Shown: positions 40,287-58,196, counted from the first letter of the stretch. The stretch: 64,000 nt of DNA from Candidatus Bathyarchaeota archaeon (GCA_018396775.1 JAGTRF010000002.1:14069-78068), one strand, 5' to 3'. Numbers and translations are program-made. Notes: generated from the sequence alone by a model not told the origin.

Positions 40287-40319
40287 TAAATCTATAGCAG
40301 GTATAACTATCGTAAGCTT

Positions 40320-40928: not shown

Positions 40929-40934
40929 AAAGCT

Positions 40935-41513: not shown

Positions 41514-41516
41514 TTT

Positions 41517-42602
41517 TTATCCCTCTTTAAAAATCAAACTTAATTCATTAACATCTTTTAAAATTACATCAGCATTAATTGAGGGGTTTTTCGAAACGAT
41601 AATGGATAAAGATTTTATTGAATAATTTGTTTTTAGTCTTTCAATTAAAATAGCCTCTGCTGCTGTGTCTCCTACATAAGCTGAAAGCTTGTTTTCAGCT
41701 TTCAATTCTTTAAGAAGGTTAAAAAAGGGTGTAGGATTTGGTTTTCCCGACTCTTCCAAAAAACTAAATTTATTTATTTCCTCCCAAAAATACGATTTTT
41801 CTAAATTAAAATAATTTTCAAGATTAAACTTTTCTAATACGTAAATTGCTTGTTTTCTAGTTCTTTCACTATAAATTATAAGTTTACCAAATTTTTTGCA
41901 AAGTTTTCTTAATGTTTCAATTGTTATAAGTGGAACTTCATTTTCTATAAAACCTTTATTTAAATTAAATAAGGCTGGTTGATTATAAAATTCTTCATAA
42001 AGATTTTTTCCTAAATAAAATTCTTCAAAAATTTTTTGAGGTAAATCTTCTTTATTTACTTTAGTTTGAATGAAGTTTTTTAATTTAGGTAAAGAATCGG
42101 TTAAATTTGGAAAAATTTTTTGCAAAGCCTCCAACTCACTTACGTTTTTTAATAAGCTTAATAAAGGTTTAAACCCTATTTTTTCACTTTTCTTTATTAA
42201 ACTTAAATAAGTTAAATTTAATCCATGAGAATTAAAAAACTCTTTTAACTTTTCAATCATATTTAAAATTTCCTTTAAATTTTCCCCCTCTTTAATTAGC
42301 TTTAAAAAATCCTTGTTTTTTAAAGCTAAAGCTGAAAAAAAATATAAAATAAAAAACCTTGTTAACTTCCAATCATCATTATACATACCTGTATCTTTAA
42401 ATTTTTGAATTTCTTTTTGCGTAATCAAATTTAAGCATGAACCCTTAAGTTTTAATAATTGAAAAAAGTAAAAGTTTACGGTTTCTTGAATAGCTCTTCT
42501 AAAAGAATTTCTTGATGAAAACACTACTCCATCAAAATCTAAAATTAAAACCTCAACTTTTTTTAATTTATTTAAAGCTTTCTCATCAATTTTTAAATAC
42601 AT
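41517..42602 (-). CDS. HAD-superfamily hydrolase embedded in the his operon (candidate histidinol-phosphate phosphatase).
   Basis: DFDGV motif I and C-terminal GDTAAEA motif IV. 361 aa with a large cap insert. Confidence 0.55.
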   Translation of the reverse strand: MYLKIDEKALNKLKKVEVLILDFDGVVFSSRNSFRRAIQETVNFYFFQLLKLKGSCLNLITQKEIQKFKDTGMYNDDWKLTRFFILYFFSALALKNKDFLKLIKEGENLKEILNMIEKLKEFFNSHGLNLTYLSLIKKSEKIGFKPLLSLLKNVSELEALQKIFPNLTDSLPKLKNFIQTKVNKEDLPQKIFEEFYLGKNLYEEFYNQPALFNLNKGFIENEVPLITIETLRKLCKKFGKLIIYSERTRKQAIYVLEKFNLENYFNLEKSYFWEEINKFSFLEESGKPNPTPFFNLLKELKAENKLSAYVGDTAAEAILIERLKTNYSIKSLSIIVSKNPSINADVILKDVNELSLIFKEG

Positions 42603-42603
42603 T

Positions 42604-43695
42604 TTAAGAATCTTCCTTTAAAACTTTTTTTAATTCAGAAGTAAATTTAATATTCATTTTCCTAGTTCCAACAGTAACTCTTAAACACTTTTCTAAAAGA
42701 GGATCTTTACTTCTATCTTTTATATAAACTCCTAAGCGTTTAAGTTTACTGCATATAGATTCAATTGATAAATCATTTTTATTAATTTTAAATAGAATAA
42801 AGTTTGCTTTTGAAGGAAAAGGAGTTACTCCATCTATTTTTTTTAATTCATTAAAAAGCCACTCTCTCTCCTTAATAATGCATTTAATCTTTCTCTTAAA
42901 TAAACTCCACTCCTCTAAAGCTATTTTAATAATTTTTTGAGTTATGGAATTCACTGAAAAAGGTCCTGAAACCCTCATTAAATAATTAACCACTTTCTCA
43001 TCAGCTGCTGCAAACCCTGCTCTAATTGAAGCTAAACCAAAAGATTTAGAAAAAGACCTTAAAACAATTAAGTTTTCATATTTTTCAACTAGGTTAATTA
43101 TGGAAAAGTCTCCAAAATCTACGTAGGCTTCATCAACAACAACTAAACCATCAAAGTCTTTCAAAATTTTTTCAACATCTTCTATGCTGAACTGATTTCC
43201 GGTAGGATTGTTGGGCGAGCAAATAATAACCATTGATGTTTTGGAGTCACATTTACTTAGAATGCTATTCACATCTAATTGAAAATTTGGCTTTAATAAA
43301 ACCTCTCTTTTTTCTCCACCATAAAGCTTTACAAAGAAAGAATACATATTGAAAGTAGGCTCGTTAATTATGATATTGCTTCCTTTGGGAATAAAAGTTT
43401 TTGAAATCTTATCTAATAAGTCATCTGAGCCATTAGCTACGAATATTTTTTCCTCTTTTAAATTATAAAATTCAGCTATGGATTCTATAGCTTCTTTTCC
43501 GTAAGGTTTTGGATAAAACCTAAAATCAAGTTTTTTAATTGCTTTTTCAACAATCTTCTTAATTTCTCTATTTGAAGTAAATAAGTTTTCATTTAAATCT
43601 AATTTAACGATAGTTTTTAAGCTTTTTATTTCAAGTAAATCTTTAACGTCATATGGTTTAACTTCTTCTACTTCAGGTCTGATTAAAAGCTTCAT
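42604..43695 (-). CDS. hisC: Histidinol-phosphate aminotransferase.
   Basis: Class I/II aminotransferase. PLP Lys in SFSKSFGLA. Confidence 0.8.
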   Translation of the reverse strand: MKLLIRPEVEEVKPYDVKDLLEIKSLKTIVKLDLNENLFTSNREIKKIVEKAIKKLDFRFYPKPYGKEAIESIAEFYNLKEEKIFVANGSDDLLDKISKTFIPKGSNIIINEPTFNMYSFFVKLYGGEKREVLLKPNFQLDVNSILSKCDSKTSMVIICSPNNPTGNQFSIEDVEKILKDFDGLVVVDEAYVDFGDFSIINLVEKYENLIVLRSFSKSFGLASIRAGFAAADEKVVNYLMRVSGPFSVNSITQKIIKIALEEWSLFKRKIKCIIKEREWLFNELKKIDGVTPFPSKANFILFKINKNDLSIESICSKLKRLGVYIKDRSKDPLLEKCLRVTVGTRKMNIKFTSELKKVLKEDS

Positions 43696-44329
43696 TTCTT
43701 TTCACTATCTCATCAACTTTTTCAATAAACTCTTTAATTTTATTAAAGCTTCTATAAGCAATTTTATTGCAAATCAACCTAGCTGTAGACTCTAATATAA
43801 CTTCAATTTCTTTTAATCCATTTTTTCTTAATGTTTCTCCTGTTGTTGAAAGATCCACTATAGCATCTGCTAAACCAAGTTTTGGAGTTAATTCTGCGCT
43901 TCCTCTAACTGTTAAAATTTCAATAGGCTTTTTTAATGAATCAAAGAATTTTCTTGTTAAATTTGGGAATTCTGTAGCTACTCTAGCGTTTAATGGAAGC
44001 TCAACAGCGTTATTTAAATTAGCTTCTATAGGCACAGCTAGTACAAGCTTGCATTTTCCAAATTTTAAATCTGAAACTTCATACACGTCTGCCTCTCTTT
44101 CCAAAATTATGTCATGTCCAGTTATCCCTAAGGTTGCTGCTCCATATTGAACATAAAGAGGAATATCAAAAGCTCTAGCTAATACAACCTCAAACTCTGA
44201 GTCTGAAGTCTTTAAGATATATGTTCTTTCCTGTTCTTTAACTTTTAATCCAGCTTTCTCAAGAATTTTCAGGGCTGGAGCCTTAAGCCTACCTTTGCTA
44301 GGCAAAGCTACTCTAAAACAATTCTCCAT
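43673..44329 (-). CDS. hisG: ATP phosphoribosyltransferase, short form.
   Basis: 218 aa. LPSKGRL N-terminus and DLSTTGETL motif. Lacks the C-terminal regulatory domain of the long form. Confidence 0.8.
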   Translation of the reverse strand: MENCFRVALPSKGRLKAPALKILEKAGLKVKEQERTYILKTSDSEFEVVLARAFDIPLYVQYGAATLGITGHDIILEREADVYEVSDLKFGKCKLVLAVPIEANLNNAVELPLNARVATEFPNLTRKFFDSLKKPIEILTVRGSAELTPKLGLADAIVDLSTTGETLRKNGLKEIEVILESTARLICNKIAYRSFNKIKEFIEKVDEIVKRNEAFNQT

Positions 44330-45552
44330 TAACTCTCCTCCTTAAGAATAAACTTTAAAGCTTCATTAATGCTTAACTTCTTTTCTTTTCCAGTTTTCAC
44401 ATTTATTACTAAAGCATAATCATTATCCAATTTTATTATAGCATTTGCCTTGCAGCTTTTCGCTATCATTTTTATTTGATCTATTGGTTTTGTAGATTCT
44501 AGAATTGTTGCAACTCCATTTTCTCTTAATTTTGAAGCGAATTCACCCCCAAGCTTTAAAGATGAAACCTCTAAAACAACAGTTTTCCTATAGCTATTTA
44601 ATAATGATTGATTTTTAATTGCTTTAAAGCATTCTGTAACGTCTATTGCAAATCCAGTTGCTGGTAAATCTTCGCCAAATTTTTTTAGCAATTCATCATA
44701 TCTTCCGCCTCCAGCGATTGGAAAACCTAAAGTTGGTAAAGAAGCTTCAAAAATTACCCCGCTATAATACTCTATTTCTTTAGTTAAAGCAAAATCAAAA
44801 AATAACTCTTTTACTCCTAGGTTTTCTGCAGCTTCATTTATTTCGAGAAGATTTACTAAAGCCTTCTTTATAGCTTGATAGCTTTCCGCTTCTTTAAGAA
44901 CATCTTTTAAATCTGAAATTTTAAAGCATTTAAAAAGCTTTTTTAAAATTAAAGCCAGCTTTAAAGGGCATCGTTTATTTTCTAAAAAGCTTTCAAATCT
45001 TGAGTAATCTTTATAGCCCGCTATCGCGAAAAGCTCCTCTTTTTCTTGAGGGTTTAAATTTAATTCATTTACAACTTCTTTTAAAATAGCTGCATGGCTT
45101 ACATCTATTCTAAAATTTGTTAAACCTAAAGAATTTAAAGCTTCAGTTAAAAGTGTTAAAACTTCAGCATCAGCTTCAGAATCTTTTCTTCCGATTAATT
45201 CAACTCCAGCTTGCCAAAATTCCCTAAACCTGCCAGGTCTATCAATAACCCTTCTAAAAACATTCAGTATATAATATAATCTAATTGGTTTAGGCGTTGG
45301 AGATAATTCGCTTGTTAAAACTCTAACAGTTGGAATTGTTGCTTCAGCTCTTAAAGCAATAATTTTTCCATCTAAATCTTGAAATTTAAACATGCTATCG
45401 ATTAACTTTGAGCCTATACCTAGAGAGAGATCTTCTGCAAACGCGATTGTTGAGGGAATTACCTCCGTATATCCCCAAAGCTCAAATGCTTCTCTTAACT
45501 TTTTTTCTATATGCCTGAAAATGTAGGCTTCTTTAGGTGGAAAATCCTTCAT
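44329..45552 (-). CDS. HisS/HisZ family protein (class II aaRS-like; either ATP-PRTase regulatory subunit or a genuine HisRS).
   Basis: Motif-2-like FRRVIDRPGRFREFWQAGVELIG. GGRYD histidine-binding block. C-terminal roughly 100-aa alpha/beta domain resembling an anticodon-binding domain. Confidence 0.6.
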   Translation of the reverse strand: MKDFPPKEAYIFRHIEKKLREAFELWGYTEVIPSTIAFAEDLSLGIGSKLIDSMFKFQDLDGKIIALRAEATIPTVRVLTSELSPTPKPIRLYYILNVFRRVIDRPGRFREFWQAGVELIGRKDSEADAEVLTLLTEALNSLGLTNFRIDVSHAAILKEVVNELNLNPQEKEELFAIAGYKDYSRFESFLENKRCPLKLALILKKLFKCFKISDLKDVLKEAESYQAIKKALVNLLEINEAAENLGVKELFFDFALTKEIEYYSGVIFEASLPTLGFPIAGGGRYDELLKKFGEDLPATGFAIDVTECFKAIKNQSLLNSYRKTVVLEVSSLKLGGEFASKLRENGVATILESTKPIDQIKMIAKSCKANAIIKLDNDYALVINVKTGKEKKLSINEALKFILKEES

Positions 45553-45687
45553 TCCAGTTGGTAATCGAGGGTTTATGAACGTTAAGCCTCCTTTCCATTT
45601 TTATCTCCTATCACCTTAAGTTAATATCCCACTTTTTACCCACCAGATTTATATAAACCTTTCGTTACTCTTTAAAGGGGGAAATGA

Positions 45688-46101
45688 ATGGAGTTATCTA
45701 AAATCGTTAGGTTAGATTCTAAAGGTAGAATATTGATTCCTTCAAGCATTAGAGCTGGATTAGGTTTATGTAAAGGTATGTATCTGATGATTTATGCAAA
45801 TTTAAATAATAAAGAAGCGCGATTGATTCCTTTCGCTGATTCTAAAGCTAAGCTTATAAACTTTAAAATGACGCTTTCAGATGCGCCTGGAGCTTTAGCT
45901 AAAGCCGCTTCAACTTTAGCTAATTATGGTGTAGATTTACTTTCAAGCGAATCAAGAACTATTCAAAGAGGGAAAATCGCTGAATGGAATGCTATAGGTG
46001 ATATATCTAAATGCAAGCTTAACCTTAAAGAGTTGAAAAAAGCTTTAGAAAAAGAAGCTTCAGCTAAAAATATTCAATTCAAAAAGTTATCTCTTGATTA
46101 A
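45688..46101 (+). CDS. AbrB/SpoVT-type DNA-binding domain fused to an ACT domain (putative small-molecule-responsive regulator).
   Basis: N-terminal IVRLDSKGRILIPSSIR (swapped-hairpin). C-terminal ACT-like region. Confidence 0.55.
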   Translation: MELSKIVRLDSKGRILIPSSIRAGLGLCKGMYLMIYANLNNKEARLIPFADSKAKLINFKMTLSDAPGALAKAASTLANYGVDLLSSESRTIQRGKIAEWNAIGDISKCKLNLKELKKALEKEASAKNIQFKKLSLD

Positions 46102-47152
46102 AATTTATTTTATTAACTGTTAACCAATCCATTAAATCTAAGTCATGAATTAAAAATTTTAGGTATTCACTTACATTTTTATCTCCAGCATAAAAATCGC
46201 TAATATCCCAGTGAATTAAGAAAAGGTTTACCGCTTTTATTAAAGCTGGTAAAGCTTTTATCTCCATTTCATTTAAAGCATTACTTTTCCCTTTCTCAAT
46301 AAAGGTTTTTTGATAAGCTTTAAAAAACTCTAAAGCTTTATTAACATCTATAGCATTTTCTCCTTTTTCACCCCAAACACCGCATGTATAATAAATGGCG
46401 TAAGCAACATCATAGGCTCTAGCATCCCATTTAACCCAATCGAAATCATACATAGCTGTTACTTTATTATCTTTAAACTTTAAGTTTCCAAGATGAAAAT
46501 CTCCAAAAACAACTATTTTAGGCAGGGTAGCGTAACCTATTGCCTTCAACTCTTTATAAATTTTAATGCTTTTCTCTTTTAGCTTATCTTTATTGCTTAA
46601 AAATAGTTTGCAAAAATCTGTTTCATCAGCTTTCTTAGAAAGATTTTCAAATTCTTTTCTTAAATTAAAAATTAATTTATCAAGTGGAAGCGTTTTCTTT
46701 TTTGATTTAGGTTTAAATCCTTTAACATGAATATGGTATTCAGCTAAAGTTTTAGCAGCATCTTTTAACTCTAAAATATTACAATATGGATAATACCATG
46801 TATACTTGTCTTCACCAATTGCAAATTCAAATAACGCGTAAAACACTATCTTTTTATAATTATTTCTTTTCTCAAATTTAGATACATAAGTTTTACCGGT
46901 TTTAGTTTTAAGTAAACGAGGAGTTTTTTGAAATCCTGAATTTATTAAATGGTTTATAAGCTCATGCTCGAAATTTACTTCGTTTCTTCGAGCGTTATCT
47001 CTATAACGCCTTAAAAAATATCTTCCTTTAGAAGTTTCAATAATATAGCTAACGTTAACATAGCCGCTGCTTAACTTTTCAGTTTTAATCACTTCACCTA
47101 AATCATAATTTTCTTTAATAATACTTTTTATATTGGTTAATTCATTTATCAA
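46079..47152 (-). CDS. APH/ChoK-family phosphotransferase. Second copy.
   Basis: FGDFHLGNL (catalytic loop) and DFDW..W motif. Confidence 0.65.
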   Translation of the reverse strand: MINELTNIKSIIKENYDLGEVIKTEKLSSGYVNVSYIIETSKGRYFLRRYRDNARRNEVNFEHELINHLINSGFQKTPRLLKTKTGKTYVSKFEKRNNYKKIVFYALFEFAIGEDKYTWYYPYCNILELKDAAKTLAEYHIHVKGFKPKSKKKTLPLDKLIFNLRKEFENLSKKADETDFCKLFLSNKDKLKEKSIKIYKELKAIGYATLPKIVVFGDFHLGNLKFKDNKVTAMYDFDWVKWDARAYDVAYAIYYTCGVWGEKGENAIDVNKALEFFKAYQKTFIEKGKSNALNEMEIKALPALIKAVNLFLIHWDISDFYAGDKNVSEYLKFLIHDLDLMDWLTVNKINFNQEITF

Positions 47153-47379
47153 AATAGAAGAGGCCTCTTAACTCGTTTTATTATTATTTAATTTTTAATT
47201 TAAAGCTGAAACAAAAAGTTTTTTGTAGAATAATTAAAGAATTCTAATACACTTCTTCTCTTTATATATAAAATATATAGATATATTACTTCAATATACG
47301 AAAATCTTAAATACTTAATGGGATAATAGCAAGGACTTATTTTGCGAGCTTTAATTAAATTAGGAGGAAAAATTAAAGC

Positions 47380-49008
47380 TTGGCTGAGAAAGGTGTTTTT
47401 ATAAGAAAAGCAAGCGGATTAGTAAGGGAAGTAGCTCCAATAGATGCTTGGATATACAACTGCCTTACAATGGGTTGGCTGTCTGTTATTGCCTATAATG
47501 TTGTAGTAAATGTTGCTATATTTCCTGGTGGAAACCATAGTGCAGCTATACTTATGACTGCTGTGCTTGGAACATTCATGTGGACAACCTATATATTTAT
47601 AACAACTGCTATGCCTAGAAGTGGAGTTGATTGGATTGCTCAAAGCAGGTTTATAAGCCCATGGGTAGCTGCACCAATAGTTATAGGAGACTTTTTCTAT
47701 TTAGTCTATTGGGATGTTTGGGCTTATTGGTTTGTTACATTTTTAGGTTTGCAACCATTTCTTACAGTTTTAGGCGCAGCTGCAAATAATCCTTCAATAA
47801 GCCAATTTGGTGAATGGCTTATAACATCTAAAGGCCTCTTTATAGTTGGAATGATATATCTGTTTCTAATGGGGTGGCAGCTTGCTCTGCCTATAAGGCT
47901 TTTCGCAAAAATTCAAAGAGGGTTAATGTTTTTTGCAACGCTTGCAATAATAGTTATGTATGCTGTTTTCGCGATGACGCCGAACTCGGTTTTTATTCAA
48001 CGCTTCAACTTGTTTGCTGAAGCTTTTGGTGCTGGACCAGATTATTACCATGCGGTTATACAAAAAGCTAGTGAAGTAACTAATTTAAATCCAGGCTTTA
48101 GATGGTATGATCAAATTGGCTTAATGGTTTTAATTTGGAGCCTTTTAGGATGGGCTTTTTGGAGTGCTCAACTTAGTGGAGAAATAAAAGGAGCTGATAA
48201 GCTTAAAGTTCAAAACTTTATAATGAATGGTTCAGGTTGGGCTACAGCTATAGCATGGCTTATAGCTTGGCTTTTAATATCTAGATCAGCCGGTGAAGAA
48301 TTTATGAAAGCTGCTGGATTTCTAGGTTTAAGCGGTGAATGGGAACTGCCTGTGGCACCTTATTTAGCTGGTTATCTTGCAGGTGCTACTATGGCCCCTG
48401 GATTTGGAACTTTAATAATCGTTGTGCTTTTAATACTTGCTTTAGGCTTGGTTTGTAATGGATATCAAGTTTACTATAATACTATGGTTGGCCCCATTAG
48501 AATGTTTTTCGCTATGGCTTTTGATAGAGCTCTTCCTGATGTATTTTCTAGAGTGCATAAAAGATGGCATACACCTGTATATGTTATTTGGTTGGCTTGC
48601 GCTGTAGCTGCTATTCAAATTTACGTTTCAGCTTATGCGCCTGAAGTTGCACCAGTATTCCTTCCAGCTGCGCTTTCAAGCGGATGCATACCATACTTCT
48701 TTACATCTTTAGCTGGAGCCTTAATGCCTTATACTGGAAAACCGATTTATGAAGCTTCTCCAGCAGCTAAATTTAAGCTTGGTCCAATACCGTTAATAAC
48801 AATTACTGGTGGGATTAGCTGCATCTTTAACGCTACAATGGCTTATTACTGGCTTACGGTTCCAGAGCTTGGAATAAACCCAGCTTCTATGGTTTTCGTA
48901 TTAATAGCATATATTGTAGGCTTTGTTTATTATGTTTTCTGGAGAACATATAGAAAAAGGCAGGGTATAAATCTAGATTTAGCATTTAAAGTTATTCCAC
49001 CAGATTAA
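47380..49008 (+). CDS. APC-superfamily permease. Paralog of 25303..26955.
   Basis: TTG start after TAGGAGG. Polytopic membrane protein. Confidence 0.7.
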   Translation: MAEKGVFIRKASGLVREVAPIDAWIYNCLTMGWLSVIAYNVVVNVAIFPGGNHSAAILMTAVLGTFMWTTYIFITTAMPRSGVDWIAQSRFISPWVAAPIVIGDFFYLVYWDVWAYWFVTFLGLQPFLTVLGAAANNPSISQFGEWLITSKGLFIVGMIYLFLMGWQLALPIRLFAKIQRGLMFFATLAIIVMYAVFAMTPNSVFIQRFNLFAEAFGAGPDYYHAVIQKASEVTNLNPGFRWYDQIGLMVLIWSLLGWAFWSAQLSGEIKGADKLKVQNFIMNGSGWATAIAWLIAWLLISRSAGEEFMKAAGFLGLSGEWELPVAPYLAGYLAGATMAPGFGTLIIVVLLILALGLVCNGYQVYYNTMVGPIRMFFAMAFDRALPDVFSRVHKRWHTPVYVIWLACAVAAIQIYVSAYAPEVAPVFLPAALSSGCIPYFFTSLAGALMPYTGKPIYEASPAAKFKLGPIPLITITGGISCIFNATMAYYWLTVPELGINPASMVFVLIAYIVGFVYYVFWRTYRKRQGINLDLAFKVIPPD

Positions 49009-49147
49009 ACCTCTTTTTATTTTTTTATAAATAAGGAGGTGAAGATTATATTGGATCCGGAAGATAAAGGAATGATTATTTTTTCAATCTTAATGTGGAT
49101 AATAATTATAGCTTGGCTTATTGCTGCGTCTTGAGAAACCCGTTTTT

Positions 49148-50182
49148 TTATCCAGATACAAATTGATAATTTACTACCTTTTTATCAGCTATAGTTATTA
49201 ACGCAGCCCTTAATATTCCTTCCCCATACTCGCTTCCAGGATTAACACATAATGTTCTTCCAATTTTCCTGGTGCCTTTAGATTCATGTATATGGCCATG
49301 TAAACCAAGCAGTGGTTGATATTTTTCTATAGCTTCTTTAACAGCTTCGCTTCCAGCACCATAAAAAACCATTTGGGCTCCCTCAAAAACTGGTTTTGGT
49401 GGATAAACTGTTGTATCAAGTTTTGGAGCTGTATCAAGCTCCGAGTCTTTGGGTGGAATATGAAAATTGAATATAGCATTTTCCATATCCTTAATTTTAG
49501 AAATCATTTCTTCTATTTTTCTTTTAAGCTCCTCTTCGTCGCATTCTCTTGGGGTATTCCAAGGAGTTGGGTTTCCCCAACCTAAGCTTGCCATTTCATG
49601 AACATCATCAATACGCACTACTTTTCCATCAGGATTTTTAACATGCTCAGTATCTTTAATAAGTTCAACAACTTCTTGTTCATCATCATTTCCTCCAGTT
49701 ATATAGCAGATAATATTTGTTCCCTTTAGCCGTTCTTCTGCGATTTCCATCCAGTTTTTCAAGCGTTCCCGCATTAATTCATCAAATATTTTTTTGCGTT
49801 TTTCTTCATTAGCTTCAAGTTCTTCATACTCTTTTTGAGTTACATGCAAGGGGTAAAAACCTGTTGTTAAAATTCTTTTTTCTAAATAGGGTAATTCATC
49901 TTTATTTTTAGCTTTTTGTTCTTGTCCTAAGAAATATGACTTATATATGCCATCAGCCTGCTCAATTATTGGAACAACCATTTTCCCTGTTATATCTCCA
50001 CCTAAAATAAGCGCGTCAACTTCATAGATTTTCCCAGCGTTAATAAATTTTTTAAATGTAGGTTCAGATCCGTGCACATCTGTAGCAAAAAGAATTTTAG
50101 TTATTTTTTCTTCACTTTTCTTTTTACCGAAAAAAGGCAAGCATAAACGCCTCCAAAATTTAAACGTGAATAATTTATACAC
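49148..50182 (-). CDS. Calcineurin-like metallophosphoesterase. Second copy.
   Basis: Same DVHGS, GGD, GND and GHIHE motifs as 27833..28774. The true start is probably downstream of the track start. Confidence 0.7.
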   Translation of the reverse strand: MYKLFTFKFWRRLCLPFFGKKKSEEKITKILFATDVHGSEPTFKKFINAGKIYEVDALILGGDITGKMVVPIIEQADGIYKSYFLGQEQKAKNKDELPYLEKRILTTGFYPLHVTQKEYEELEANEEKRKKIFDELMRERLKNWMEIAEERLKGTNIICYITGGNDDEQEVVELIKDTEHVKNPDGKVVRIDDVHEMASLGWGNPTPWNTPRECDEEELKRKIEEMISKIKDMENAIFNFHIPPKDSELDTAPKLDTTVYPPKPVFEGAQMVFYGAGSEAVKEAIEKYQPLLGLHGHIHESKGTRKIGRTLCVNPGSEYGEGILRAALITIADKKVVNYQFVSG

Positions 50183-50256
50183 TATTATAATATTTAAAGC
50201 TTTTTTGTTAAAACCTAAAGGTTTTTAAAGCTTTAAAAGCTTAAAATATTGCTGAA

Positions 50257-50772
50257 ATGCTGGAAACTTTAAAAATTCATGGAATAGAGCTTAAACATCC
50301 TGAAGAATGGGTAATTCACCCAATAATTAAATTGGAAAGACTTAGAGGAGAAATTGCTTTTTCCTCTAGCGAACAAAAAAGCGCAACGCCTAAGCTTATG
50401 CTTTCATGGAAACCTTTAGAGCAATCTAAAAGAAAATATAATTCACCTGAAGATCAAGCTGAAGCAACTATAAAAATAATGCGGAAAGACAGCTCATTAA
50501 AATCTCTTGAAATAATTAATCATGAAGAAATTAATGTTAACAACCATAAAGCAAGCTTTTATAATATTAAAATAACCCTTTATAAACCAGCTTTAATAAT
50601 GATTAAACCAAAATTCACAATTAAAATCGTAAAATTTGCAATGCTTTTCTGCGAAGAATCTGACCGCTCAATAACACTTTACTCTGAGCTAGAAGAAACA
50701 GAAGAAAAAGAAGATGTATTTAAAGAAATTCTTTCATCACTAATATGCCATTCAACCAAGCGTAAAATTTAA
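50257..50772 (+). CDS. Hypothetical protein.
   Basis: 171-aa ORF directly upstream of the methyltransferase genes. Confidence 0.35.
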   Translation: MLETLKIHGIELKHPEEWVIHPIIKLERLRGEIAFSSSEQKSATPKLMLSWKPLEQSKRKYNSPEDQAEATIKIMRKDSSLKSLEIINHEEINVNNHKASFYNIKITLYKPALIMIKPKFTIKIVKFAMLFCEESDRSITLYSELEETEEKEDVFKEILSSLICHSTKRKI

Positions 50773-50818
50773 ATTCTTATTACAGCTTGATTATTCAGCG
50801 TTAAAATTAAATTGAAGA

Positions 50819-52204
50819 ATGAGGAATGAAAATTTGCCTCCTATAAGTTTTATTGAAGTTTTAAATCGAAGCTTGACAGGTCCAGTTTCATCAGAAAAAG
50901 AGTTTGATTATAAAGTTGGCATGAAATTAAGAGAGCTTGTAAAAAAATATGATATTAAATATAATCCAGAAAACCCAATCCCATCTGACAATAGTTTAGC
51001 TGATGATGTATTTAAAGCAGCTGTAGAATTTTATACTGATGTAGGCACTTATTGCATGGATACCGAGCGAAGAATAACATTTACAGAGGATGAAATTAAA
51101 GAAGGAATAAAAAATGTGCCACATGCAACCCTTTTTGGGGAAGGAAATGAAGCAAAATTTTTCTCTGCTAGAACGCTTGAAAGCTCTGAGCATCCATGGT
51201 GTCATGTAGGTGCTGGAATAGCCGTATCCAGTGAAGAACTATTAGTAAAACTTGTTGAAGCTTTTGCAAGCATTCCTGAAACTGATTCCGTAAGCGTTCC
51301 TACATTAACTGAGGTTGATGGCGTTCCTATAAGAACACCGCCATTAGAAGTTTATGGATCAATAAGAATGATTGCTTTAGCTCATGAAGCTATGAAAAGA
51401 GCCGGTCGCCCAGGTTTACCGATTTTAAATTTAGTTTCTACAGCAGCTTCTCAAATAGCTGGAATAGCTGCAACAGCTCCTCAATTTGGGATAAAACCAA
51501 CAGATGGATGGCTTGTAGATGCTTTCCCAGATTTAAAAATGTATAACGATGTTTTAACTAAAGCAGCTTACCTGTTAAACTGGGGCGCAAATATAGGTGC
51601 ATGTTATACACCATTAATAGGTGGATACTCTGGAGGACCTGAAGGAACAGCTATAATGAGTGTTGCTTACTCGATAAACGGGATAATGGTGTTAAAATCA
51701 AGATATCAACTTTACTATGTTTCAAATATAGTAAACGGTTCATCAAGCAGTAGAGACGCTCTTTGGGCTTTATCAGTTAGCGCGCAAGCAATAAGCAGAA
51801 ACATTAAAGTACCTATAATTCATTTATCTTATCAAGCTGCTGGAGCTGCTACAGAAATGCTATTATATGAAATTACAGCAGCTATATTAGCGTCGGTGGC
51901 TTCCGGCATCTCAGTAGAAAGCAACCATCCATCTAAAGCTGTGTTAACCGATCATATAATCCCTATGGAATCTGAATTTTATTGTAAAGTTGCGCATGCT
52001 GTTACTGGCATGAAAAGAAGTGAAGTAAATGAACTTGCAAAAATCCTATTACTTAAATATGAGAAGGATTTAAATAATCCGCCTAAAGGAAAAAAATATC
52101 AAGAATGTTATGATGTTAAAACAGGTAAACCAAAGGAAGAGTATTTAAAATTCTATAAAGTTATGGAGAAAAAAATTATTGATTTAGGAATACAAATTGA
52201 ATAA
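50819..52204 (+). CDS. MtmB-family (monomethylamine methyltransferase-like) corrinoid-dependent methyltransferase, non-pyrrolysine.
   Basis: C-terminal PKGKKYQECYDVKTGKPKEEYLKFY resembles the MtmB C-terminus. AGRPGLPILNLVSTAASQIAG aligns where MtmB encodes Pyl. The ORF is uninterrupted. This rests on my recall of MtmB sequence. Confidence 0.65.
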   Translation: MRNENLPPISFIEVLNRSLTGPVSSEKEFDYKVGMKLRELVKKYDIKYNPENPIPSDNSLADDVFKAAVEFYTDVGTYCMDTERRITFTEDEIKEGIKNVPHATLFGEGNEAKFFSARTLESSEHPWCHVGAGIAVSSEELLVKLVEAFASIPETDSVSVPTLTEVDGVPIRTPPLEVYGSIRMIALAHEAMKRAGRPGLPILNLVSTAASQIAGIAATAPQFGIKPTDGWLVDAFPDLKMYNDVLTKAAYLLNWGANIGACYTPLIGGYSGGPEGTAIMSVAYSINGIMVLKSRYQLYYVSNIVNGSSSSRDALWALSVSAQAISRNIKVPIIHLSYQAAGAATEMLLYEITAAILASVASGISVESNHPSKAVLTDHIIPMESEFYCKVAHAVTGMKRSEVNELAKILLLKYEKDLNNPPKGKKYQECYDVKTGKPKEEYLKFYKVMEKKIIDLGIQIE

Positions 52205-52239
52205 AGTTTATAAAAATAACAAATGGAGGGAAAATTAGG

Positions 52240-52884
52240 TTGTCTTCTAAAGAAGAGATTTTAAATAAGGTTGTTTTGGATTTGTTTAGTTATGATGTTG
52301 ATGGTATTAGGGTTGATGTTGAAAAGGCTTTAGAAAAAGGTTTTTCGCCTTTAGAGGTTATTAACGCCTTATCTAATGGTATGCGTGAGATTGGTGATAA
52401 GTTTGCTAGGCTTGAGCTTTTCTTAACTGATTTAATGATGGCTGGTGACACGATGAAGGCTGCTTTAGAAATATTACTGCCTAAAATTCCTAAAGATAAA
52501 GCTGTAAGTAAAGGCAAAATTGTTATTGGAACTGTTAAAGGGGATATTCATGAAATAGGCAAGAATATTGTTTCAGCCATGTTGACAGCTTCAGGTTTTG
52601 AAGTTTACGATTTAGGGAAGGATGTTCCAGCTTCAAGGTTTCTTGAGGAAGCTGAGAAATTTAAAGCTAATATTATAGGCGCTTCAGCATTAATGACAAC
52701 AACAATACCCGCCTTAAAAGATTTAATAGAATATGTTAAGGCTAAAGGCTTAAGAAATAAATATAAAATAATAGTTGGTGGAGGACCAGTAACAAAAGAA
52801 TATGCGGAGGAAATAGGTGCAGACGCATATGCGGAAAACGCTGTAGAAGCCGTTAAAACAATAAAAAACCTAATAGAAAAATAG
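52240..52884 (+). CDS. Corrinoid (cobalamin-binding) protein, MtmC/MttC-like.
   Basis: Helical cap plus Rossmann B12 domain with GDIHEIGKNIV (DxHxxG). TTG start after GGAGGG. Confidence 0.8.
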   Translation: MSSKEEILNKVVLDLFSYDVDGIRVDVEKALEKGFSPLEVINALSNGMREIGDKFARLELFLTDLMMAGDTMKAALEILLPKIPKDKAVSKGKIVIGTVKGDIHEIGKNIVSAMLTASGFEVYDLGKDVPASRFLEEAEKFKANIIGASALMTTTIPALKDLIEYVKAKGLRNKYKIIVGGGPVTKEYAEEIGADAYAENAVEAVKTIKNLIEK

Positions 52885-52897
52885 AGGAGACACATAT

Positions 52898-54268
52898 ATG
52901 AACTCTGTTAACTTCTTTGAAGTTTTAAAACGCGCTTCATCAGGTCCCATAGTTTCTGAAAAAGAATTTAATATACTGGTTTTTAAAAAGCTTAAAGAAG
53001 TTGTGAAAGAGTACGATATAAAATTTGATGGTGAAACCCCAGTTCCTTTTGATGATAGTTTAGCTGATGATGTATTTAAAGCTGCTTTAGATTTTTATGC
53101 TGATGTAGGCACTTATTGCATGGATACTGAGCGTATAATAAAATTTACAGAGGATGAAATTAAAGAAGGCTTAAAAAATGCTCCTCATAAAGCTTTTTTT
53201 GGAGAAGGAAAAGAAGCGAAAACTTTTATACCTAGAAAACCTGAAAGCAAAGAAACTCCATGGTGTCATGTAGGTGCTGGAATAGCTGTATCTAGTGAAG
53301 AAATTCATTCAAAGTTAGTTGAAGGATACGCTAGCATTCCTGAAGCAGATTCTATAAGCGTTCCAGCATTAGCTTTTATAGAAGGTGTTTCAATAAGGGA
53401 GCCTCCAATAGAATTTTATGGTGCTTTGAAAATGTTAGCTTCAGCTAAAGAAGCTTTAAGAAGAGCCGGTCGTCCAGGCTTACCGATTTTAAATCTTGTT
53501 TCTACAGCGGCCTCTCAAATAGCTGGAATAGCTGCTAGTGCAGCGCAATTTGGCTTAACATCTTCTAACGGATGGTTAGTTCCCACTTATCCAGAATTAA
53601 AAATTGGAAATAATGAGTTATGTAAAATAGCTTATCTGCTTAGTTGGGGAGCAAATATTGGTGCTGAATACTCGCCGTTAATAGGTGGCTACTCTGGTGG
53701 ACCTGAAGGAACAGCAGTAGTGTTTGTTGCTAATTGCATTCAAGGAATACTAGTTTTAAAGTCTACTTATCAACTTGCTTGGATAACAAATGTTATTGAT
53801 AGATGCTCAACTACTAAAGATGCCATATGGGCTTTAGCTGTAAGCGGTCAAGCAATAAGCCGAAATATATCTTTTCCAGTTATTCAATTTCATTATCAAG
53901 CAGCCGGTCCAGCAACTAAAATGCTGCTTTATGAGGTTGCTGCAGGCATGATTGAGATAGTGGCTTCAGGTCAAGCTATAGAAACAGCGCATCCAGCTAG
54001 AGCTGTAGAAATAGATTATGTAACGCCGTTAGAAATGAAATTTTCTGTAGAAATAGCTCATGCAGCAGCAGGAATGAAAAGAACAATGGCAAACGAAATA
54101 GTTAAAGAACTACTAGAAAAATATGAAAATAACATTAAAAATGCTCCTAAGGGAAAAAAATATCAAGAATGCTTTGATTTAAAAACAGGTAAACCTACCG
54201 AAGAATACTTAAGAATATATAATGAAGTGAAAAAAGAGCTTAAAGATATAGGTATCCCATTTGAATAA
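52898..54268 (+). CDS. MtmB-family methyltransferase, second paralog, non-pyrrolysine.
   Basis: Collinear with 50819..52204 (GRPGLPILNLVSTAASQIAG and PKGKKYQECFDLKTGKPTEEYLRIY). About 55-60% identical by eye. Confidence 0.65.
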   Translation: MNSVNFFEVLKRASSGPIVSEKEFNILVFKKLKEVVKEYDIKFDGETPVPFDDSLADDVFKAALDFYADVGTYCMDTERIIKFTEDEIKEGLKNAPHKAFFGEGKEAKTFIPRKPESKETPWCHVGAGIAVSSEEIHSKLVEGYASIPEADSISVPALAFIEGVSIREPPIEFYGALKMLASAKEALRRAGRPGLPILNLVSTAASQIAGIAASAAQFGLTSSNGWLVPTYPELKIGNNELCKIAYLLSWGANIGAEYSPLIGGYSGGPEGTAVVFVANCIQGILVLKSTYQLAWITNVIDRCSTTKDAIWALAVSGQAISRNISFPVIQFHYQAAGPATKMLLYEVAAGMIEIVASGQAIETAHPARAVEIDYVTPLEMKFSVEIAHAAAGMKRTMANEIVKELLEKYENNIKNAPKGKKYQECFDLKTGKPTEEYLRIYNEVKKELKDIGIPFE

Positions 54269-54514
54269 CTTTATAAATTTTTTATTTAAAAGGGGAATCG
54301 GTATGAGTCTAATCTCCCAAAAATGCGTTACAGCTGAAGGCTCTGTAATGAAATTAAGGCAAATTTAGTCATCTCTTATTCTATTGATAAAAAATCTTTA
54401 GTAAACATATGTTAGCTGGAATTCAAAATAACGATTTCGCCTAAAGGCTTTTGGAGGTTTAAATAGTAGTCAAAAGAAAAAATTAGAGAAAGCGTTAAAA
54501 GCCTAAAAATTAAT

Positions 54515-54534
54515 TTGCATTAAGTCTAATGCAA
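54515..54534. promoter_or_regulatory. Palindrome TTGCATTA-AGTC-TAATGCAA in the long AT-rich leader upstream of fae/hps.
   Basis: Perfect 8-bp inverted arms with a 4-bp spacer, about 230 bp upstream of the fae/hps start. Candidate dimeric regulator site. Confidence 0.3.
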
Positions 54535-54761
54535 CTTATAAAATCGAAATAATAAAAATGAAGCTTTAATAGGTTCAATATGTTCCTGTTTAAAGAAAAT
54601 AAACTTTATTATAAATATAACATAAAAATGTCAATTTTATATTATTTACATCATAATTATTTAAAATAAAGTTTAAAATGGTATTTTTAAATCAAAAATA
54701 GTTAAAGTAAAAATGCTTAATTGCATATATTAAAAGGGTTAAGGGGGCAAAAAAGATTATA

Positions 54762-55943
54762 ATGTTTTTAATTGGTGAAGCTCTCGTCGGCTCTGGACCT
54801 GAAGTAGCCCATATAGATTTAATTATAGGCGATAAAGAAGGCGTTGTAGGGCAAGCTTTCGCTACAGGTTTAGCTAGTTTATCTGCGGGGCATACTCCTT
54901 TAGTAGCTGTTATAAGGCCTAATTTACCGCCTAAGCCCTTCACCTTACTTGTTCCTAAAGTAACAATTAAAAATATGGAACAAGCTGCTAAAGTTTTTGG
55001 TTCAGCTCAAGCAGCTGTAGGTAAAGCTGTGGCAGATGCTGTTGAAGAAGGAATTATTCCAAAAGATAAAATTGATGAATGGGTTATTATATGCAGCGTT
55101 TTTATTCATCCAGAAGCTAAAGATTCAAGGCGAATATACCATTATAATTACAGTGCAACTAAACTAGCGCTTAAAAGAGCTTTAATGAATTATCCAAGCT
55201 TAGAGAAAATAATGTATGATAAGGATAGAGCAACTCATCCGATAATGGGCTTTAGAGTTCCAAGATTATGGATGCCGCCCTACCTTCAAGTAGCTTTAGA
55301 TATTCCAGATTTAGAGAAAACAAAAGCTATTGTAGCTGATCTTCCTAAAAGCGATAGAATAATTCTTGAAGCTGGAACCCCGCTTATAAAAAGATACGGC
55401 GCTAGAGTAATTCAAGAATTAAGAGAAATAGTTAAAGATGTTTTTATAATAGCTGATTTAAAAACGCTTGATGTAGGTCAAGTGGAAGTTGATTTAGCTT
55501 ATGAAGAAACAGCAGATGCAGTTGTAGCATCTGGATTAGCTAGCATAGAAACATTAAATAAATTCATTTATGAAGCTAAAAGGCTTGGAATATACGCTGC
55601 AATAGATATGATGGATGTAGTTAACCCATTAAAGCTTTTAGAGCAATTAACTGATTTACCAGATATAGTTATTATTCATAGAGGAATAGATGAGGAAAAA
55701 ATAAAGAAAACAAGATGGGAATTAATTAAAGAGCTTAAAGAAAAATATAAAGATAAAAAAATGCTTATAGCTATAGCCGGAGGAATAGAGCCTTCAACAG
55801 TTCCTTTAGCTTTAGAATCAGGCGCAGATATAATAGTTGTAGGAAGATATATAACGCAATCAAGAGATGTTAAAAAAGCAGCTAGAGAATTCTTAACTCA
55901 GCTAGGCTTAGACATGGATATATTTAGAGTTCACGTAGAATAG
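54762..55943 (+). CDS. fae/hps: Bifunctional formaldehyde-activating enzyme / 3-hexulose-6-phosphate synthase.
   Basis: N-terminal Fae (MFLIGEALVG...VAHIDLIIG). C-terminal OMPDC-fold HPS (LQVALD, ADLKTLD). Confidence 0.8.
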   Translation: MFLIGEALVGSGPEVAHIDLIIGDKEGVVGQAFATGLASLSAGHTPLVAVIRPNLPPKPFTLLVPKVTIKNMEQAAKVFGSAQAAVGKAVADAVEEGIIPKDKIDEWVIICSVFIHPEAKDSRRIYHYNYSATKLALKRALMNYPSLEKIMYDKDRATHPIMGFRVPRLWMPPYLQVALDIPDLEKTKAIVADLPKSDRIILEAGTPLIKRYGARVIQELREIVKDVFIIADLKTLDVGQVEVDLAYEETADAVVASGLASIETLNKFIYEAKRLGIYAAIDMMDVVNPLKLLEQLTDLPDIVIIHRGIDEEKIKKTRWELIKELKEKYKDKKMLIAIAGGIEPSTVPLALESGADIIVVGRYITQSRDVKKAAREFLTQLGLDMDIFRVHVE

Positions 55944-56025
55944 AAACTATTTTTCCCCTGCTTTTTTAAAAGCTAATAACTATGGAAAATAACATTTAAT
56001 AAAACCTATCACTTAAATTGTCTTC

Positions 56026-57267
56026 ATGAATTTTAAAGAAAATATTGTCGATTCAAATTTTTTTAAATGGAAACTGCGGATTTTAATAATTTGGAATATA
56101 TTTTACATTTTTTATTATCTTGGTAGAATCCATTATGGGCTTACGCTTCCTTGGATAAAAGAGGATTTAAAGCTTACAATTATAGAGGCAAGTGTTATAG
56201 CTTCAGGAAGCCTTTGGGCTTATGCTTTAGGCAATATTATATTCGGAAGGCTTAGCGATAAATTAGGTTATAAAAAACTGTTGTTTTCAGCTTCAATATT
56301 TACAGCTTTAATGAATTGGATCGCCAGCTTTGCTTTTTCCTTTAAAACTCTTTTAATTCCATTTATAATTAATGGCTTTATTCAAGCAATGGGTTATGCG
56401 CCTGGTGAAGCTATGGTTGCGCAATGGTGGCGAAGAAAAGAATGGGGAACAACAGTTGGTTTTACAGGTTTAAGTGCATCTCTATCTGTTCTTATTGTTT
56501 GGATTATAACCGGTTGGTTTGCTTCAAATTACGGTTGGAGAGCAGCATGGCGATATCCTTTATTAATAACTTTAACAGTTGGAGTAATGCTTTATCTTAT
56601 TGCTAAAGATAAACCAAGCGATGCAGGATTTCCAAGCTATAACGATTTTAACGAAAATAATCAATCTATAAAAGAAAAACTTAACCCTTATATTTATTTA
56701 CTTTCAAATAAAAAATTTCTATTAATTTGTTTTGTTGGCATATTGCTTTTTATCGGTCGATATGGATTAATAACTTGGATACCTTTATATTATGCTGAAA
56801 GCGGAATAGCTTTATCAATTATTCCATTAACAACTATAACGTTGCCTATAGGGCAAGCTTTAGGCGCTATTTCAGCCGGCTTCATTTCAGATAAAGTTTT
56901 TAAATCTAACCGTTACAAAACCGTATGCATATATGCGGTTGCTGGTTGTTTAACTTTAATTGCTTTAGCTTTAACTTCTATTCGCTTAAACCCAATTCTT
57001 TCAATAACGTTATTAGGTTTAGGGGGCTTCTTCACTTTTGGAGCTGCTATACCTGTTTTTGTATTAGCTTTAGAGGCTGGTGGAAGAGAAATAGCTGGAA
57101 CAGCTGTTGGAATCTTCGACTTCTTTTGTTATATAGGTAGTGGTCTTCAAGGCTTAATTATAGGGTTTATACTTTATGCTACAAACTATAATTGGATAAA
57201 AACATTCATAATTTTAGGCATGTTAATTGCTTTCTCAGCAATTTTAATTTTTGCAGCAAGAAAATAA
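56026..57267 (+). CDS. MFS transporter.
   Basis: 12 TM profile and GRLSDK-type motif between TM2 and TM3. Confidence 0.7.
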   Translation: MNFKENIVDSNFFKWKLRILIIWNIFYIFYYLGRIHYGLTLPWIKEDLKLTIIEASVIASGSLWAYALGNIIFGRLSDKLGYKKLLFSASIFTALMNWIASFAFSFKTLLIPFIINGFIQAMGYAPGEAMVAQWWRRKEWGTTVGFTGLSASLSVLIVWIITGWFASNYGWRAAWRYPLLITLTVGVMLYLIAKDKPSDAGFPSYNDFNENNQSIKEKLNPYIYLLSNKKFLLICFVGILLFIGRYGLITWIPLYYAESGIALSIIPLTTITLPIGQALGAISAGFISDKVFKSNRYKTVCIYAVAGCLTLIALALTSIRLNPILSITLLGLGGFFTFGAAIPVFVLALEAGGREIAGTAVGIFDFFCYIGSGLQGLIIGFILYATNYNWIKTFIILGMLIAFSAILIFAARK

Positions 57268-57311
57268 AAAAGCTAGCTTTAATTAATTGTTCCATTCATA
57301 GATGCTGCGTA

Positions 57312-57698
57312 TTAAAGCTCATCACTTGCAACTGTTTTTACATATTTTTTACCTATTTTATAAAGCTTTGAATCATCTGTAACTAATGTTAAGTTGTTAT
57401 CTATCGCAGCTTGAATATATGATGCATCATAATAGGTTATACCTTCTTCTAAAGCCATTTTTAATATTTTTAAGGCATTTTCAGGTTTTAGCTTCTTTAA
57501 CCTATTGAAGACTTCAATTAAAGAATCTAATGCTATTCTTGCCTCATCAGCTTCTATAGCTTTATATAAATAAACCTGCTTCCAAATAGCATTTCCCAAC
57601 TCATAAAACGTTAAACTTAAAGTCCATCCTTCAAGCAGTTTATCCAATTTTTTTTCTCCACATAAGTTTATTATAGCTGAAGAGTCAAAAAGATTCAT
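57312..57698 (-). CDS. vapC: PIN-domain ribonuclease (VapC toxin).
   Basis: 128 aa with PIN acidic residues. Overlaps the upstream small antitoxin by 4 nt. Confidence 0.7.
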   Translation of the reverse strand: MNLFDSSAIINLCGEKKLDKLLEGWTLSLTFYELGNAIWKQVYLYKAIEADEARIALDSLIEVFNRLKKLKPENALKILKMALEEGITYYDASYIQAAIDNNLTLVTDDSKLYKIGKKYVKTVASDEL

Positions 57699-57922
57699 CT
57701 CTCTTCTCTACTCTCCCTTAAAGATTTAATCCAAGCCTCTTCGCTAACTTTTTTTATAATTTTGCTCGCTTCTTCAACCTTTTTATAAAGGCGTTGTTTC
57801 ATTCTTTCCTCCACTTCCTCTTCAAGCGCTCTTTTAATAACTTCAGAAGGTTTTATTCCTAGCTCAGAAAGCTTTTTTCTAAGCTCTTCATCGATTTTGG
57901 CTGAAACAGTTACATACCTCAA
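57695..57922 (-). CDS. vapB: Ribbon-helix-helix (CopG/VapB-like) antitoxin.
   Basis: YVTVSAKIDEELRKKLSEL has an N-terminal beta-strand followed by a helix. Confidence 0.6.
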   Translation of the reverse strand: MRYVTVSAKIDEELRKKLSELGIKPSEVIKRALEEEVEERMKQRLYKKVEEASKIIKKVSEEAWIKSLRESREER

Positions 57923-58196
57923 TTATACCACCAATATGTATTACATAATTTTACTATATAAATATTACTACTTTATAAGACTCCAATAAAATAAAGTTGA
58001 ATCTTATACACCTGAAAAACCCTAATTTACTACTCACCCTTAAAATTTAACAATCTAAAGGAGAGGCTTTTAAATATGCTGCTCTTACAAAAGAATAAGC
58101 TAAATGCAATATAACGATAGTTGTAAATTAAAAACGTGGAGTCATAAACTAATTTAAGGTATTTAAACCTAACACAATTTAATGAGCAATATAAGA

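Follow-up and report, generated by a model that had tools for sequence, protein, structure and literature searches.

Pyrrolysine-independent MtmB-family methyltransferases encoded in a Bathyarchaeota genome, with a possible link to choline-type substrates

Three genes in a row were analysed in a 64,000-nt stretch of the genome of a Candidatus Bathyarchaeota archaeon (GCA_018396775.1, JAGTRF010000002.1:14069-78068; hereafter the window): a first MtmB-family methyltransferase gene (MtmB1), a gene for a corrinoid protein (CorC) and a second MtmB-family gene (MtmB2) (Table 1). All three open reading frames (ORFs) lie on the plus strand, with spacers of 35 nt between MtmB1 and CorC and 13 nt between CorC and MtmB2, and GGAGG-type ribosome-binding sites precede CorC and MtmB2. 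A TTG codon at 50834 is an alternative start of MtmB1, as in the NCBI gene call P0006. An oligo-T run follows the MtmB2 stop codon, and a 490-nt AT-rich gap then separates it from the Fae-Hps gene; this non-coding stretch (54269-54761, very AT-rich) is without an Rfam match. The G+C content of the window is 26-36% (2-kb bins), and its archaeal-type genes include Fae-Hps as well as GatD/E and thermosome genes, these last read by eye. MtmB1 is identical to P0006, an NCBI protein named 'Candidatus Bathyarchaeota archaeon', and an exact copy of MtmB2 lies on contig JAWCKM010000029.1 of assembly GCA_038852005.1, from which P0006 also comes. The original prediction read the three genes as an operon encoding a pyrrolysine (Pyl)-independent, MtmB-like methyltransferase with a substrate other than monomethylamine.

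Membership of both ORFs in the MtmB family was borne out by profile searches. Both frames are open, with no internal stop. The PF05369 (MtmB) profile matched MtmB1 with 297.5 bits (E 2e-88, residues 11-458 of 461) and MtmB2 with 320.4 bits (E 3e-95), against a cut-off of 25, and both ORFs covered profile positions 2/3-450 of 450, so that the two proteins, which share 62% identity, are full-length. Searches with phmmer against Methanosarcina barkeri MtmB (PDB 1L2Q/1NTH) gave E 4e-57 for MtmB1 and E 1e-58 for MtmB2; the alignments (residues 14-456 and 8-458) span ~445 residues at ~30% identity, the GRPG, GGY.GG and QECYD.KT motifs are common to the three proteins, and the same TIM-barrel fold is expected.

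Pyl202 of M. barkeri MtmB (the X in AGRPGMGVXGPE), encoded there by UAG, aligns in both ORFs with the first Leu of AGRPGLPILNLVS, the motif and position that had been named from the sequence; both genes have a Leu codon at this position rather than an in-frame UAG. As a control, the Pyl-type MtmB genes of Methanomethylophilaceae (loci L067, L069 and L071) keep the in-frame TAG, within GRPG[LM][SG][VI]*GPQT. The replacement extends to E205, H228/E229, E259 and Q333, which we take to be the acidic or polar residues around Pyl in the 1NTH structure. E205 is replaced by S or V, depending on the alignment; H228 and E229 are W and L in both ORFs; E259 is C in MtmB1 and is kept in MtmB2; and Q333 is L or F. 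Around the Pyl site, hydrophobic or aromatic residues thus stand in place of acidic ones. Judged from these alignments, both ORFs are pyrrolysine-independent members of the MtmB family.

Table 1. Genes of the window considered in this analysis (positions counted from its first nucleotide).
Feature	Position	Strand	Description
MtmB1 (ORF1)	50819-52204	+	461 aa; non-Pyl MtmB-family methyltransferase, probable MT1 (substrate:corrinoid methyltransferase)
CorC	52240-52884	+	214 aa; MtxC-type corrinoid (B12-binding) protein
MtmB2 (ORF3)	52898-54268	+	456 aa; second non-Pyl MtmB-family methyltransferase, MtmB1 paralog
hyp171	50257-50772	+	small conserved protein upstream of MtmB1; homologs (67-87%) directly upstream of MtmB1 in L088, L089, L090 and L002
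Metallophosphoesterase (MPE)	49148-50182	-	weak Metallophos matches; 53% identical to the paralog at 27833-28774
APC-superfamily permease	47380-49008	+	26% identical (E 5e-50) to the AA_permease_2 protein at 25303; distant paralog
APH-family small-molecule kinase	46079-47152	-	PF01636, E 8e-22; CotS/homoserine-kinase-like; divergent from the MtmB1 gene set
APC permease, second module	25303-26955	+	PF13520; homologs (37-40%) beside MtmB/MttB/ChoK in L081-L083, L092, L098 and L103
NTP_transf_5-like protein (NTP5), second module	26978-27739	-	weak PF14907 match
Metallophosphoesterase, second module	27833-28774	+	homologs (53-58%) in L081-L083, L092 and L098
Non-Pyl MttB-family methyltransferase, second module	28761-30215	+	PF06253, E 1e-94; Ser at Pyl334 position
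Choline/ethanolamine kinase (ChoK), second module	30221-31141	-	PF01633, E 8e-35
Fae-Hps fusion	54762-55943	+	C1 enzyme linked to tetrahydromethanopterin (H4MPT); NF009833, 593 bits; MtmB2 neighbour, separately transcribed
Major facilitator superfamily (MFS) transporter	56026-57267	+	organophosphate:phosphate antiporter-like; PF07690; TIGR00881, 180 bits, below cut-off, GlpT/UhpC-like

The absence of visible pyl genes, also part of the original prediction, was confirmed for the 64-kb window, to which this statement applies and not to the rest of the genome: it holds no tRNA gene and no Rfam family match. Five radical-SAM ORFs were considered as PylB candidates and rejected, two being LipS1 and LipS2 above cut-off and three best matching other non-Pyl families; the PylB model gave a single weak, sub-threshold match, on the LipS1 ORF. 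The LipS2 and LipS1 genes (19090-22162) flank an ORF read by eye as lipoate-protein ligase, an ordinary archaeal lipoylation set. The only class-II synthetase-like ORF, at 60457, was rejected as PylS and is asparagine synthetase A (AsnA). Stop codon usage in the window (TAA 38, TGA 9, TAG 4) is uninformative on the use of Pyl. Pyl systems are present in some Bathyarchaeota (PMC5424206); they are irrelevant to MtmB1 and MtmB2, because both genes have a sense codon at the Pyl position.

We searched 1.84 billion representatives clustered at 50% identity and obtained 1160 clusters at E<=1e-3 and 245 at E<=1e-30. Among the best 150 matches most were full-length, with 450-470 aa, and the Pyl column of the 147 uninterrupted sequences that were aligned contained Leu (27), Val (16), Ile (15), Gly (15), Met (13) and others. 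The homologs come from Bathyarchaeia, Anaerolineae/Dehalococcoidia, Desulfobacterota, Spirochaetota, Planctomycetota, Bipolaricaulota and other groups. Most of the family consists of uninterrupted MtmB homologs; this kind of enzyme is already known and widespread, and one member, MtqB, was characterised in 2026 (PMC13044021), so that the novelty implied by the original prediction does not stand. One 461-aa protein (P0368), uninterrupted and with Ile at the Pyl position, groups within the Pyl-MtmB clade beside Methanomethylophilaceae and so seems to have lost Pyl recently, inside the canonical clade.

In a neighbour-joining (NJ) tree, MtmB1 and MtmB2 belong to a clade of 10 members, of which the only named one comes from Bathyarchaeota; this clade is part of a major branch shared with homologs from Chloroflexota and Desulfobacterota. 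The clade holds two old paralog lines. MtmB1 has orthologs of 89-93% identity in L002, L003, L080 and L088-L090, and MtmB2 has orthologs of 90-92% in L078 and L093-L096, the latter always as CorC-MtmB2 or as SacDH-MtmB2, where SacDH is a saccharopine-dehydrogenase-like gene. The homologs in Anaerolineae/Dehalococcoidia, Desulfobacterota, Spirochaetota and Planctomycetota resemble the window proteins in being uninterrupted, 42-54% identical and on the same major branch; as in the window, they usually lie beside a corrinoid protein gene, often in several copies per locus. Their other neighbours differ, being class-III aminotransferases, Opp/Dpp-type ABC transporters and GntR regulators rather than kinases and phosphoesterases. 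A scan of the bacterial loci (L002-L077) recorded 104 MtmB-like copies in 69 loci, 41 copies of class-III aminotransferases in 25 loci and PhnW-like aminotransferases in 5 loci. The aminotransferase neighbours of these distant members hint that many enzymes of the family yield primary amines.

MtqB of Methanococcoides methylutens Q3c is, as far as the accessible part of PMC13044021 goes, the first characterised non-Pyl MtmB homolog; it methylates cob(I)alamin in vitro with tetramethylammonium or choline, and MtqC is its proposed partner. We identified it with P0450, encoded on CP199767.1 (2,584,604 bp, the Q3c genome), on the basis of the genome accession, the gene order (a 216-aa corrinoid gene lies upstream) and the 78% identity to the AM1 homolog, which matches the figure in PMC13044021; the computed mass does not match, since it is 49432 against a published 49382, 50 Da apart. 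For the comparison, the MtqB clade was defined by members 70-89% identical to a reference member, P0412 (216-aa CorC, then 459-aa MtmB). In the Q3c region 5337-10631 of L168 (CP199767.1), a second corrinoid/non-Pyl MtmB pair lies 1.2 kb downstream of mtqC-mtqB; its genes are 62% and 54% identical to mtqC-mtqB, and we did not find the pair discussed in the parts of PMC13044021 consulted.

MtqB and the window proteins share several features: PF05369, an uninterrupted frame of ~459 aa, a Pyl position that is hydrophobic in both (Val in the former, Leu in the latter), Leu at the E229 position, an adjoining ~215-aa MtbC-like corrinoid protein and, in Q3c too, tandem paralogous corrinoid-methyltransferase pairs. 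The window enzymes might be read as functional equivalents of MtqB that directly demethylate unphosphorylated quaternary amines, for instance tetramethylammonium or choline, the kinases and phosphoesterases nearby being irrelevant. The substrates of MtqB, the only characterised non-Pyl MtmB (PMC13044021), fit such a role, as do the Cys that MtmB1 shares with it at the E259 equivalent and the fact that the window CorC and MtqC both score best on the dimethylamine-type corrinoid model. We nevertheless think this improbable. As candidate orthologs of MtqB, MtmB1 and MtmB2 were rejected: at 30-31% identity they are no closer to it than to Pyl-MtmB, and the NJ tree places MtqB beside the Pyl-MtmB clade and the window ORFs on the other major branch. 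The C-M-C signature of MtqB (259-261 equivalents) is absent, being C-Y-T in MtmB1 and E-Y-S in MtmB2; the mapping of 'position 4 Met, position 5 Cys', taken from PMC13044021, onto the 259-261 columns is our own. The recurrent linkage to kinases described below would also be left unexplained. Within 6 kb on either side of mtqCB there is no kinase, phosphoesterase or permease gene. The hosts differ as well, that of MtqB being a methanogen with an MtbA-type coenzyme M methyltransferase, whereas the probable second methyltransferase (MT2) of the window clade, in Bathyarchaeia, is MtrH-like.

Two further alternatives were weighed against the sequence of the active site and its conservation. That the proteins are true monomethylamine methyltransferases working without pyrrolysine is what their public annotation ('monomethylamine:corrinoid methyltransferase') would suggest, and a small activity of MtqB with monomethylamine points the same way (PMC13044021). 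Against it, hydrophobic or uncharged residues stand in place of Pyl202, E205 and E229, the Pyl-type genes of Methanomethylophilaceae keep their TAG, and a docking study in PMC13044021 ascribes monomethylamine activity to Pyl. That one or both copies are inactive remnants or non-catalytic could be argued from the loss in MtmB1 of the Glu259 equivalent, retained in MtmB2 and most of its closer relatives. Yet both proteins are full length, orthologs of 73-93% identity persist in several lineages, 86 columns are invariant across 16 clade members, and both genes are tightly coupled to corrinoid and MtrH genes. Because of the replaced active-site residues and the strong conservation we consider both loss of function and Pyl-free monomethylamine activity very unlikely. 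The best explanation of these comparisons is that both ORFs are functional. It is close to certain that MtmB1 and MtmB2 are corrinoid-dependent MT1 enzymes that work without Pyl and use a substrate other than monomethylamine. The original prediction pointed this way, and it is now strengthened by the replaced acidic residues and by analogy with MtqB and its quaternary amines (PMC13044021). The label 'monomethylamine methyltransferase', carried by nearly all non-Pyl MtmB homologs, is very likely wrong for them.

The middle ORF had been taken for a corrinoid protein with a DxHxxG motif, and this proved correct. It combines PF02607 with PF02310, contains DIHEIG as the DxHxxG motif along with SAL and GGG motifs, and passes TIGR02370 (217.2 bits against a cut-off of 215.3), with MtbC/MtgC-like proteins as the best named matches. 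By these features CorC is a genuine MtxC-type, methyltransferase-cognate corrinoid protein.

The order of the three genes, which had been described as a B-C-B operon (MtmB1-CorC-MtmB2), is contradicted by a nearly identical assembly and by 26 of 26 related loci. Two contigs of GCA_038852005.1 (NCBI) bear on this point, JAWCKM010000004.1 (L167) and JAWCKM010000029.1 (L001). L167 is 99.8% identical to window positions 40834-52883, but the gene that comes after its CorC is a 302-aa member of the MtrH family and not MtmB2; beyond this MtrH gene L167 carries (13307-15198) a 72-aa choline-kinase remnant and a 455-aa autoproteolytic hydrolase of the C45 family (Phospholip_B-like). L001, a 5.5-kb contig 99.7% identical to window positions 52656-58192, starts inside a CorC gene and carries MtmB2. 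The window and L167 cease to match precisely at the stop codon of CorC, which is TAG in the window and L001 and TAA in L167. Mismatches between the two occur upstream at ~1 per kb, save for a cluster of five inside MtmB1, and nine lie between 52446 and 52854. At the six variable sites of a 228-nt overlap the window agrees with L001 at four and with L167 at two.

Paralogous CorC genes were compared across the window (52240-52884), L167 (11407-12051), L001 (1-229), L089, L090 and L096. Relatives have two CorC paralogs, which differ in the N-terminal cap and are near-identical in the C-terminal two-thirds; in L090 the 3' part of CorC was apparently converted to the sequence of the other copy. From this comparison the window CorC looks like a hybrid of the two paralogs, with an a-type 5' part and a mostly b-type 3' part. 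Three contigs, L001, L002 and L088, have a break in or at CorC, and the order MtmB1-CorC-MtmB2 was found in none of the 26 other loci of the clade. The B-C-B order is doubtful because identity stops at the CorC stop codon, the variable sites form a mosaic and the 26 relatives lack it; it may be an assembly chimera across the repeat or the product of a genuine recombination between the two CorC copies, such as an inversion if the copies were inverted. Whichever applies, a CorC gene is the natural neighbour of each MtmB paralog. More generally, near-identical corrinoid-protein paralogs can yield misleading gene orders in metagenome assemblies.

MtmB-like genes have a CorC homolog as neighbour in 16 of the 27 loci of the clade and in 98 of 134 other loci. 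Directly after MtmB1-CorC, an MtrH-family gene is found in L167, L003, L080, L089 and L090, the last four with the order MtmB1-CorC-MtrH-radical SAM; its scores are 305 bits with the MtrH-family model (above cut-off) and 307 bits with MtgA. ChoK genes lie close to the window MttB, and close to MtmB-type genes in L081, L082, L083, L091, L092, L098 and L103. The order is MPE, APC permease, MtmB1-type (73%), CorC and ChoK in L081, L082 and L091, and MtmB1-type, CorC, ChoK, MPE and APC permease in L092. L098 has, on one strand, APC permease, MPE, non-Pyl MttB, ChoK and an MtmB2-type gene (73%). In L083 and L103 a single cluster runs MtmB, CorC, MPE, APC permease, C45 hydrolase, MttB, ChoK, NTP5 and MtmB; the C45/AAT-family gene between permease and MttB is related to the C45 hydrolase of L167. 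In numbers, MtmB-like genes have ChoK nearby in 7 of the 27 clade loci and in 0 of the 134 loci of more distant homologs, MPE in 9 of 27 versus 1 of 134, and the APC permease likewise in 9 of 27 versus 1 of 134. Apart from these single MPE and APC cases, window-type kinase, phosphoesterase and permease genes were not found near the more distant bacterial homologs at the 134 loci, and the kinase-based inference about the substrate is therefore limited to the clade.

The window shows the same gene content in two parts: APH kinase, APC permease, MPE and hyp171 upstream of MtmB1, and a module (25303-31141) with paralogous APC and MPE genes together with NTP5, MttB and ChoK. In the first part, the APH kinase has homologs of 77-78% directly upstream of MtmB1 in L002, L080, L088 and L089, and the permease has homologs of 93-94% in L089 and L090. 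The hyp171 protein gave no significant family match in the profile search; its gene is probably co-transcribed with MtmB1. In the second module, ChoK displays the Brenner and choline-kinase motifs in its translation and has homologs (38-54%) that adjoin clade MtmB genes. The MttB protein reaches 455 bits on TIGR02369, below the cut-off of 525, and its Pyl334 position was taken from the alignment to 7XCM; homologs of 53-56% are clustered with MtmB-like genes in L083, L098 and L103. A 55% homolog of NTP5 lies between ChoK and MtmB in L083 and L103, and the gene is present too in L081 and L091. Downstream of MtmB2, a 95% homolog of Fae-Hps recurs in L094 and L096, and an 80% homolog of the MFS transporter follows Fae-Hps in L094. 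A histidine biosynthesis operon occupies the minus strand at 36977-45552 (HisG and HisZ-like genes according to the calls of the sister assembly, the others by eye), and an ACT-domain gene comes next at 45688; synteny of the operon with L002, L080 and L167 extends as far as the APH kinase.

A bacterial precedent for such a gene set exists. In the phosphocholine:tetrahydrofolate methyltransferase system of Eubacterium limosum, phosphocholine is the product of the kinase MthK, encoded next to MthB, and MthB, which belongs to the MttB family, demethylates it (PMC12155760, 2025); co-localisation of a kinase with an MT1 has been reported in bacteria only (PMC12155760). The logic of the pathway is alike in the MthB/MthC/MthA/MthK system and in the one proposed for the clade: a choline kinase gene near genes for a corrinoid protein, for an MT1 that needs corrinoid but no Pyl, and for an MT2 that uses a pterin. 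The MttB-ChoK pair of the window (28761-31141) mirrors mthB-mthK. The E. limosum system differs in that its MT1 is of the MttB and not the MtmB family and in that it removes one methyl group and recycles dimethylaminoethanol phosphate via MthK, whereas the window clade has additional MtmB-type MT1s, metallophosphoesterases and an MtrH-type MT2. The module at 25303-31141 resembles an archaeal counterpart of the bacterial MthB/MthK pair; no corrinoid protein or MT2 gene adjoins it.

The recurrent ChoK/MPE/APC/MttB neighbourhood, taken with the MthB and MtqB precedents, leads us to propose that MtmB1 and MtmB2 act as MT1s on choline-type amino alcohols or their phosphates, methylating CorC, from which MtrH would unload the methyl group to a pterin carrier; from genomic context, we give this proposal about an even chance of being right. 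Each MtmB enzyme would transfer a methyl group from an N-methylated amine to the Co(I) form of the adjacent CorC, and the MtrH-type MT2 would pass it from CorC to the pterin carrier, probably H4MPT, a cofactor that the organism is taken to use because a Fae-Hps gene is present. Candidate substrates are choline and phosphocholine as well as N,N-dimethyl- and N-methyl-ethanolamine, either free or phosphorylated. The APC permease would import the compound, the choline- or APH-type kinase would phosphorylate it, the non-Pyl MttB and the MtmB paralogs of the window would demethylate it, and the metallophosphoesterase would handle the phosphate ester.

Several observations weigh against this proposal. 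MT2 and RamA-type activase genes are absent from the window, where ChoK (PF01633) and MttB lie 20 kb from MtmB1 with the APH-family kinase alone nearby. The link to kinase, MPE and APC permease is seen in about five independent lineages only, and outside the clade it is class-III aminotransferases, in 25 of 76 loci, and not kinases, that accompany the family. To our knowledge, the non-Pyl members of the MttB and MtmB families characterised so far have been shown to use quaternary amines, MtqB having no more than a small activity with monomethylamine, and we know of no precedent for such enzymes demethylating ethanolamines that are tertiary or secondary amines. Finally, the closest MtmB2 orthologs (73-92%) lie beside a PotD-type ABC transporter and SacDH, so that MtmB2 may use a different amine.

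This last point is the core of an alternative in which the paralogs serve unrelated amines, MtmB1 a kinase-linked amino alcohol and MtmB2 an N-methylated compound of polyamine or lysine type, brought in by the ABC transporter and processed with the SacDH-like enzyme. In L078, L084 and L093-L096 the MtmB2 orthologs always follow ABC transporter genes (SBP_bac_8, TOBE_2) and SacDH, with CorC in between in some cases, and Fae-Hps comes next in L094 and L096. The SacDH-like protein is weakly similar to carboxynorspermidine synthase, 9 of the 134 loci from outside the clade also carry SacDH homologs, and distant members of the family pair with class-III and PhnW-like aminotransferases. On the other hand, the MtmB2-type gene of L098 (73%) comes directly after APC-MPE-MttB-ChoK, a 63% relative is placed likewise in L083 and L103, and no N-methyl-polyamine methyltransferase of this kind is known. 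On balance we regard separate, unrelated substrates as unlikely.

The choline-type proposal can be carried further. One MttB and two MtmB paralogs might together strip all three methyl groups from kinase-activated choline, in a series from phosphocholine through phospho-dimethylethanolamine and phospho-monomethylethanolamine to phosphoethanolamine, with the methyl groups entering the Wood-Ljungdahl pathway at its H4MPT branch by way of a shared type of corrinoid protein and the MtrH-like enzyme. The genes for an MttB, two MtmB-type enzymes, a kinase, a permease and a phosphoesterase form one cluster in L083 and are split in two in the window. We offer this complete series as a doubtful extension; if true, it would be the first case of tertiary and secondary amines being demethylated by corrinoid-dependent enzymes without Pyl.

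In anoxic sediments, it is corrinoid-dependent methyltransferases that determine which methylated amines are channelled into the formation of methane and acetate. To what had been predicted for this locus, the analysis adds the placement of its enzymes in an uncharacterised, Bathyarchaeia-named clade, a kinase-linked hypothesis on their substrate and a warning about the assembly. The link of this clade to kinase-activated choline-type substrates is a testable hypothesis for archaea that are abundant in sediments; if true, it would extend the phosphocholine route, so far known from bacteria only (PMC12155760), to archaea and to a second enzyme family.

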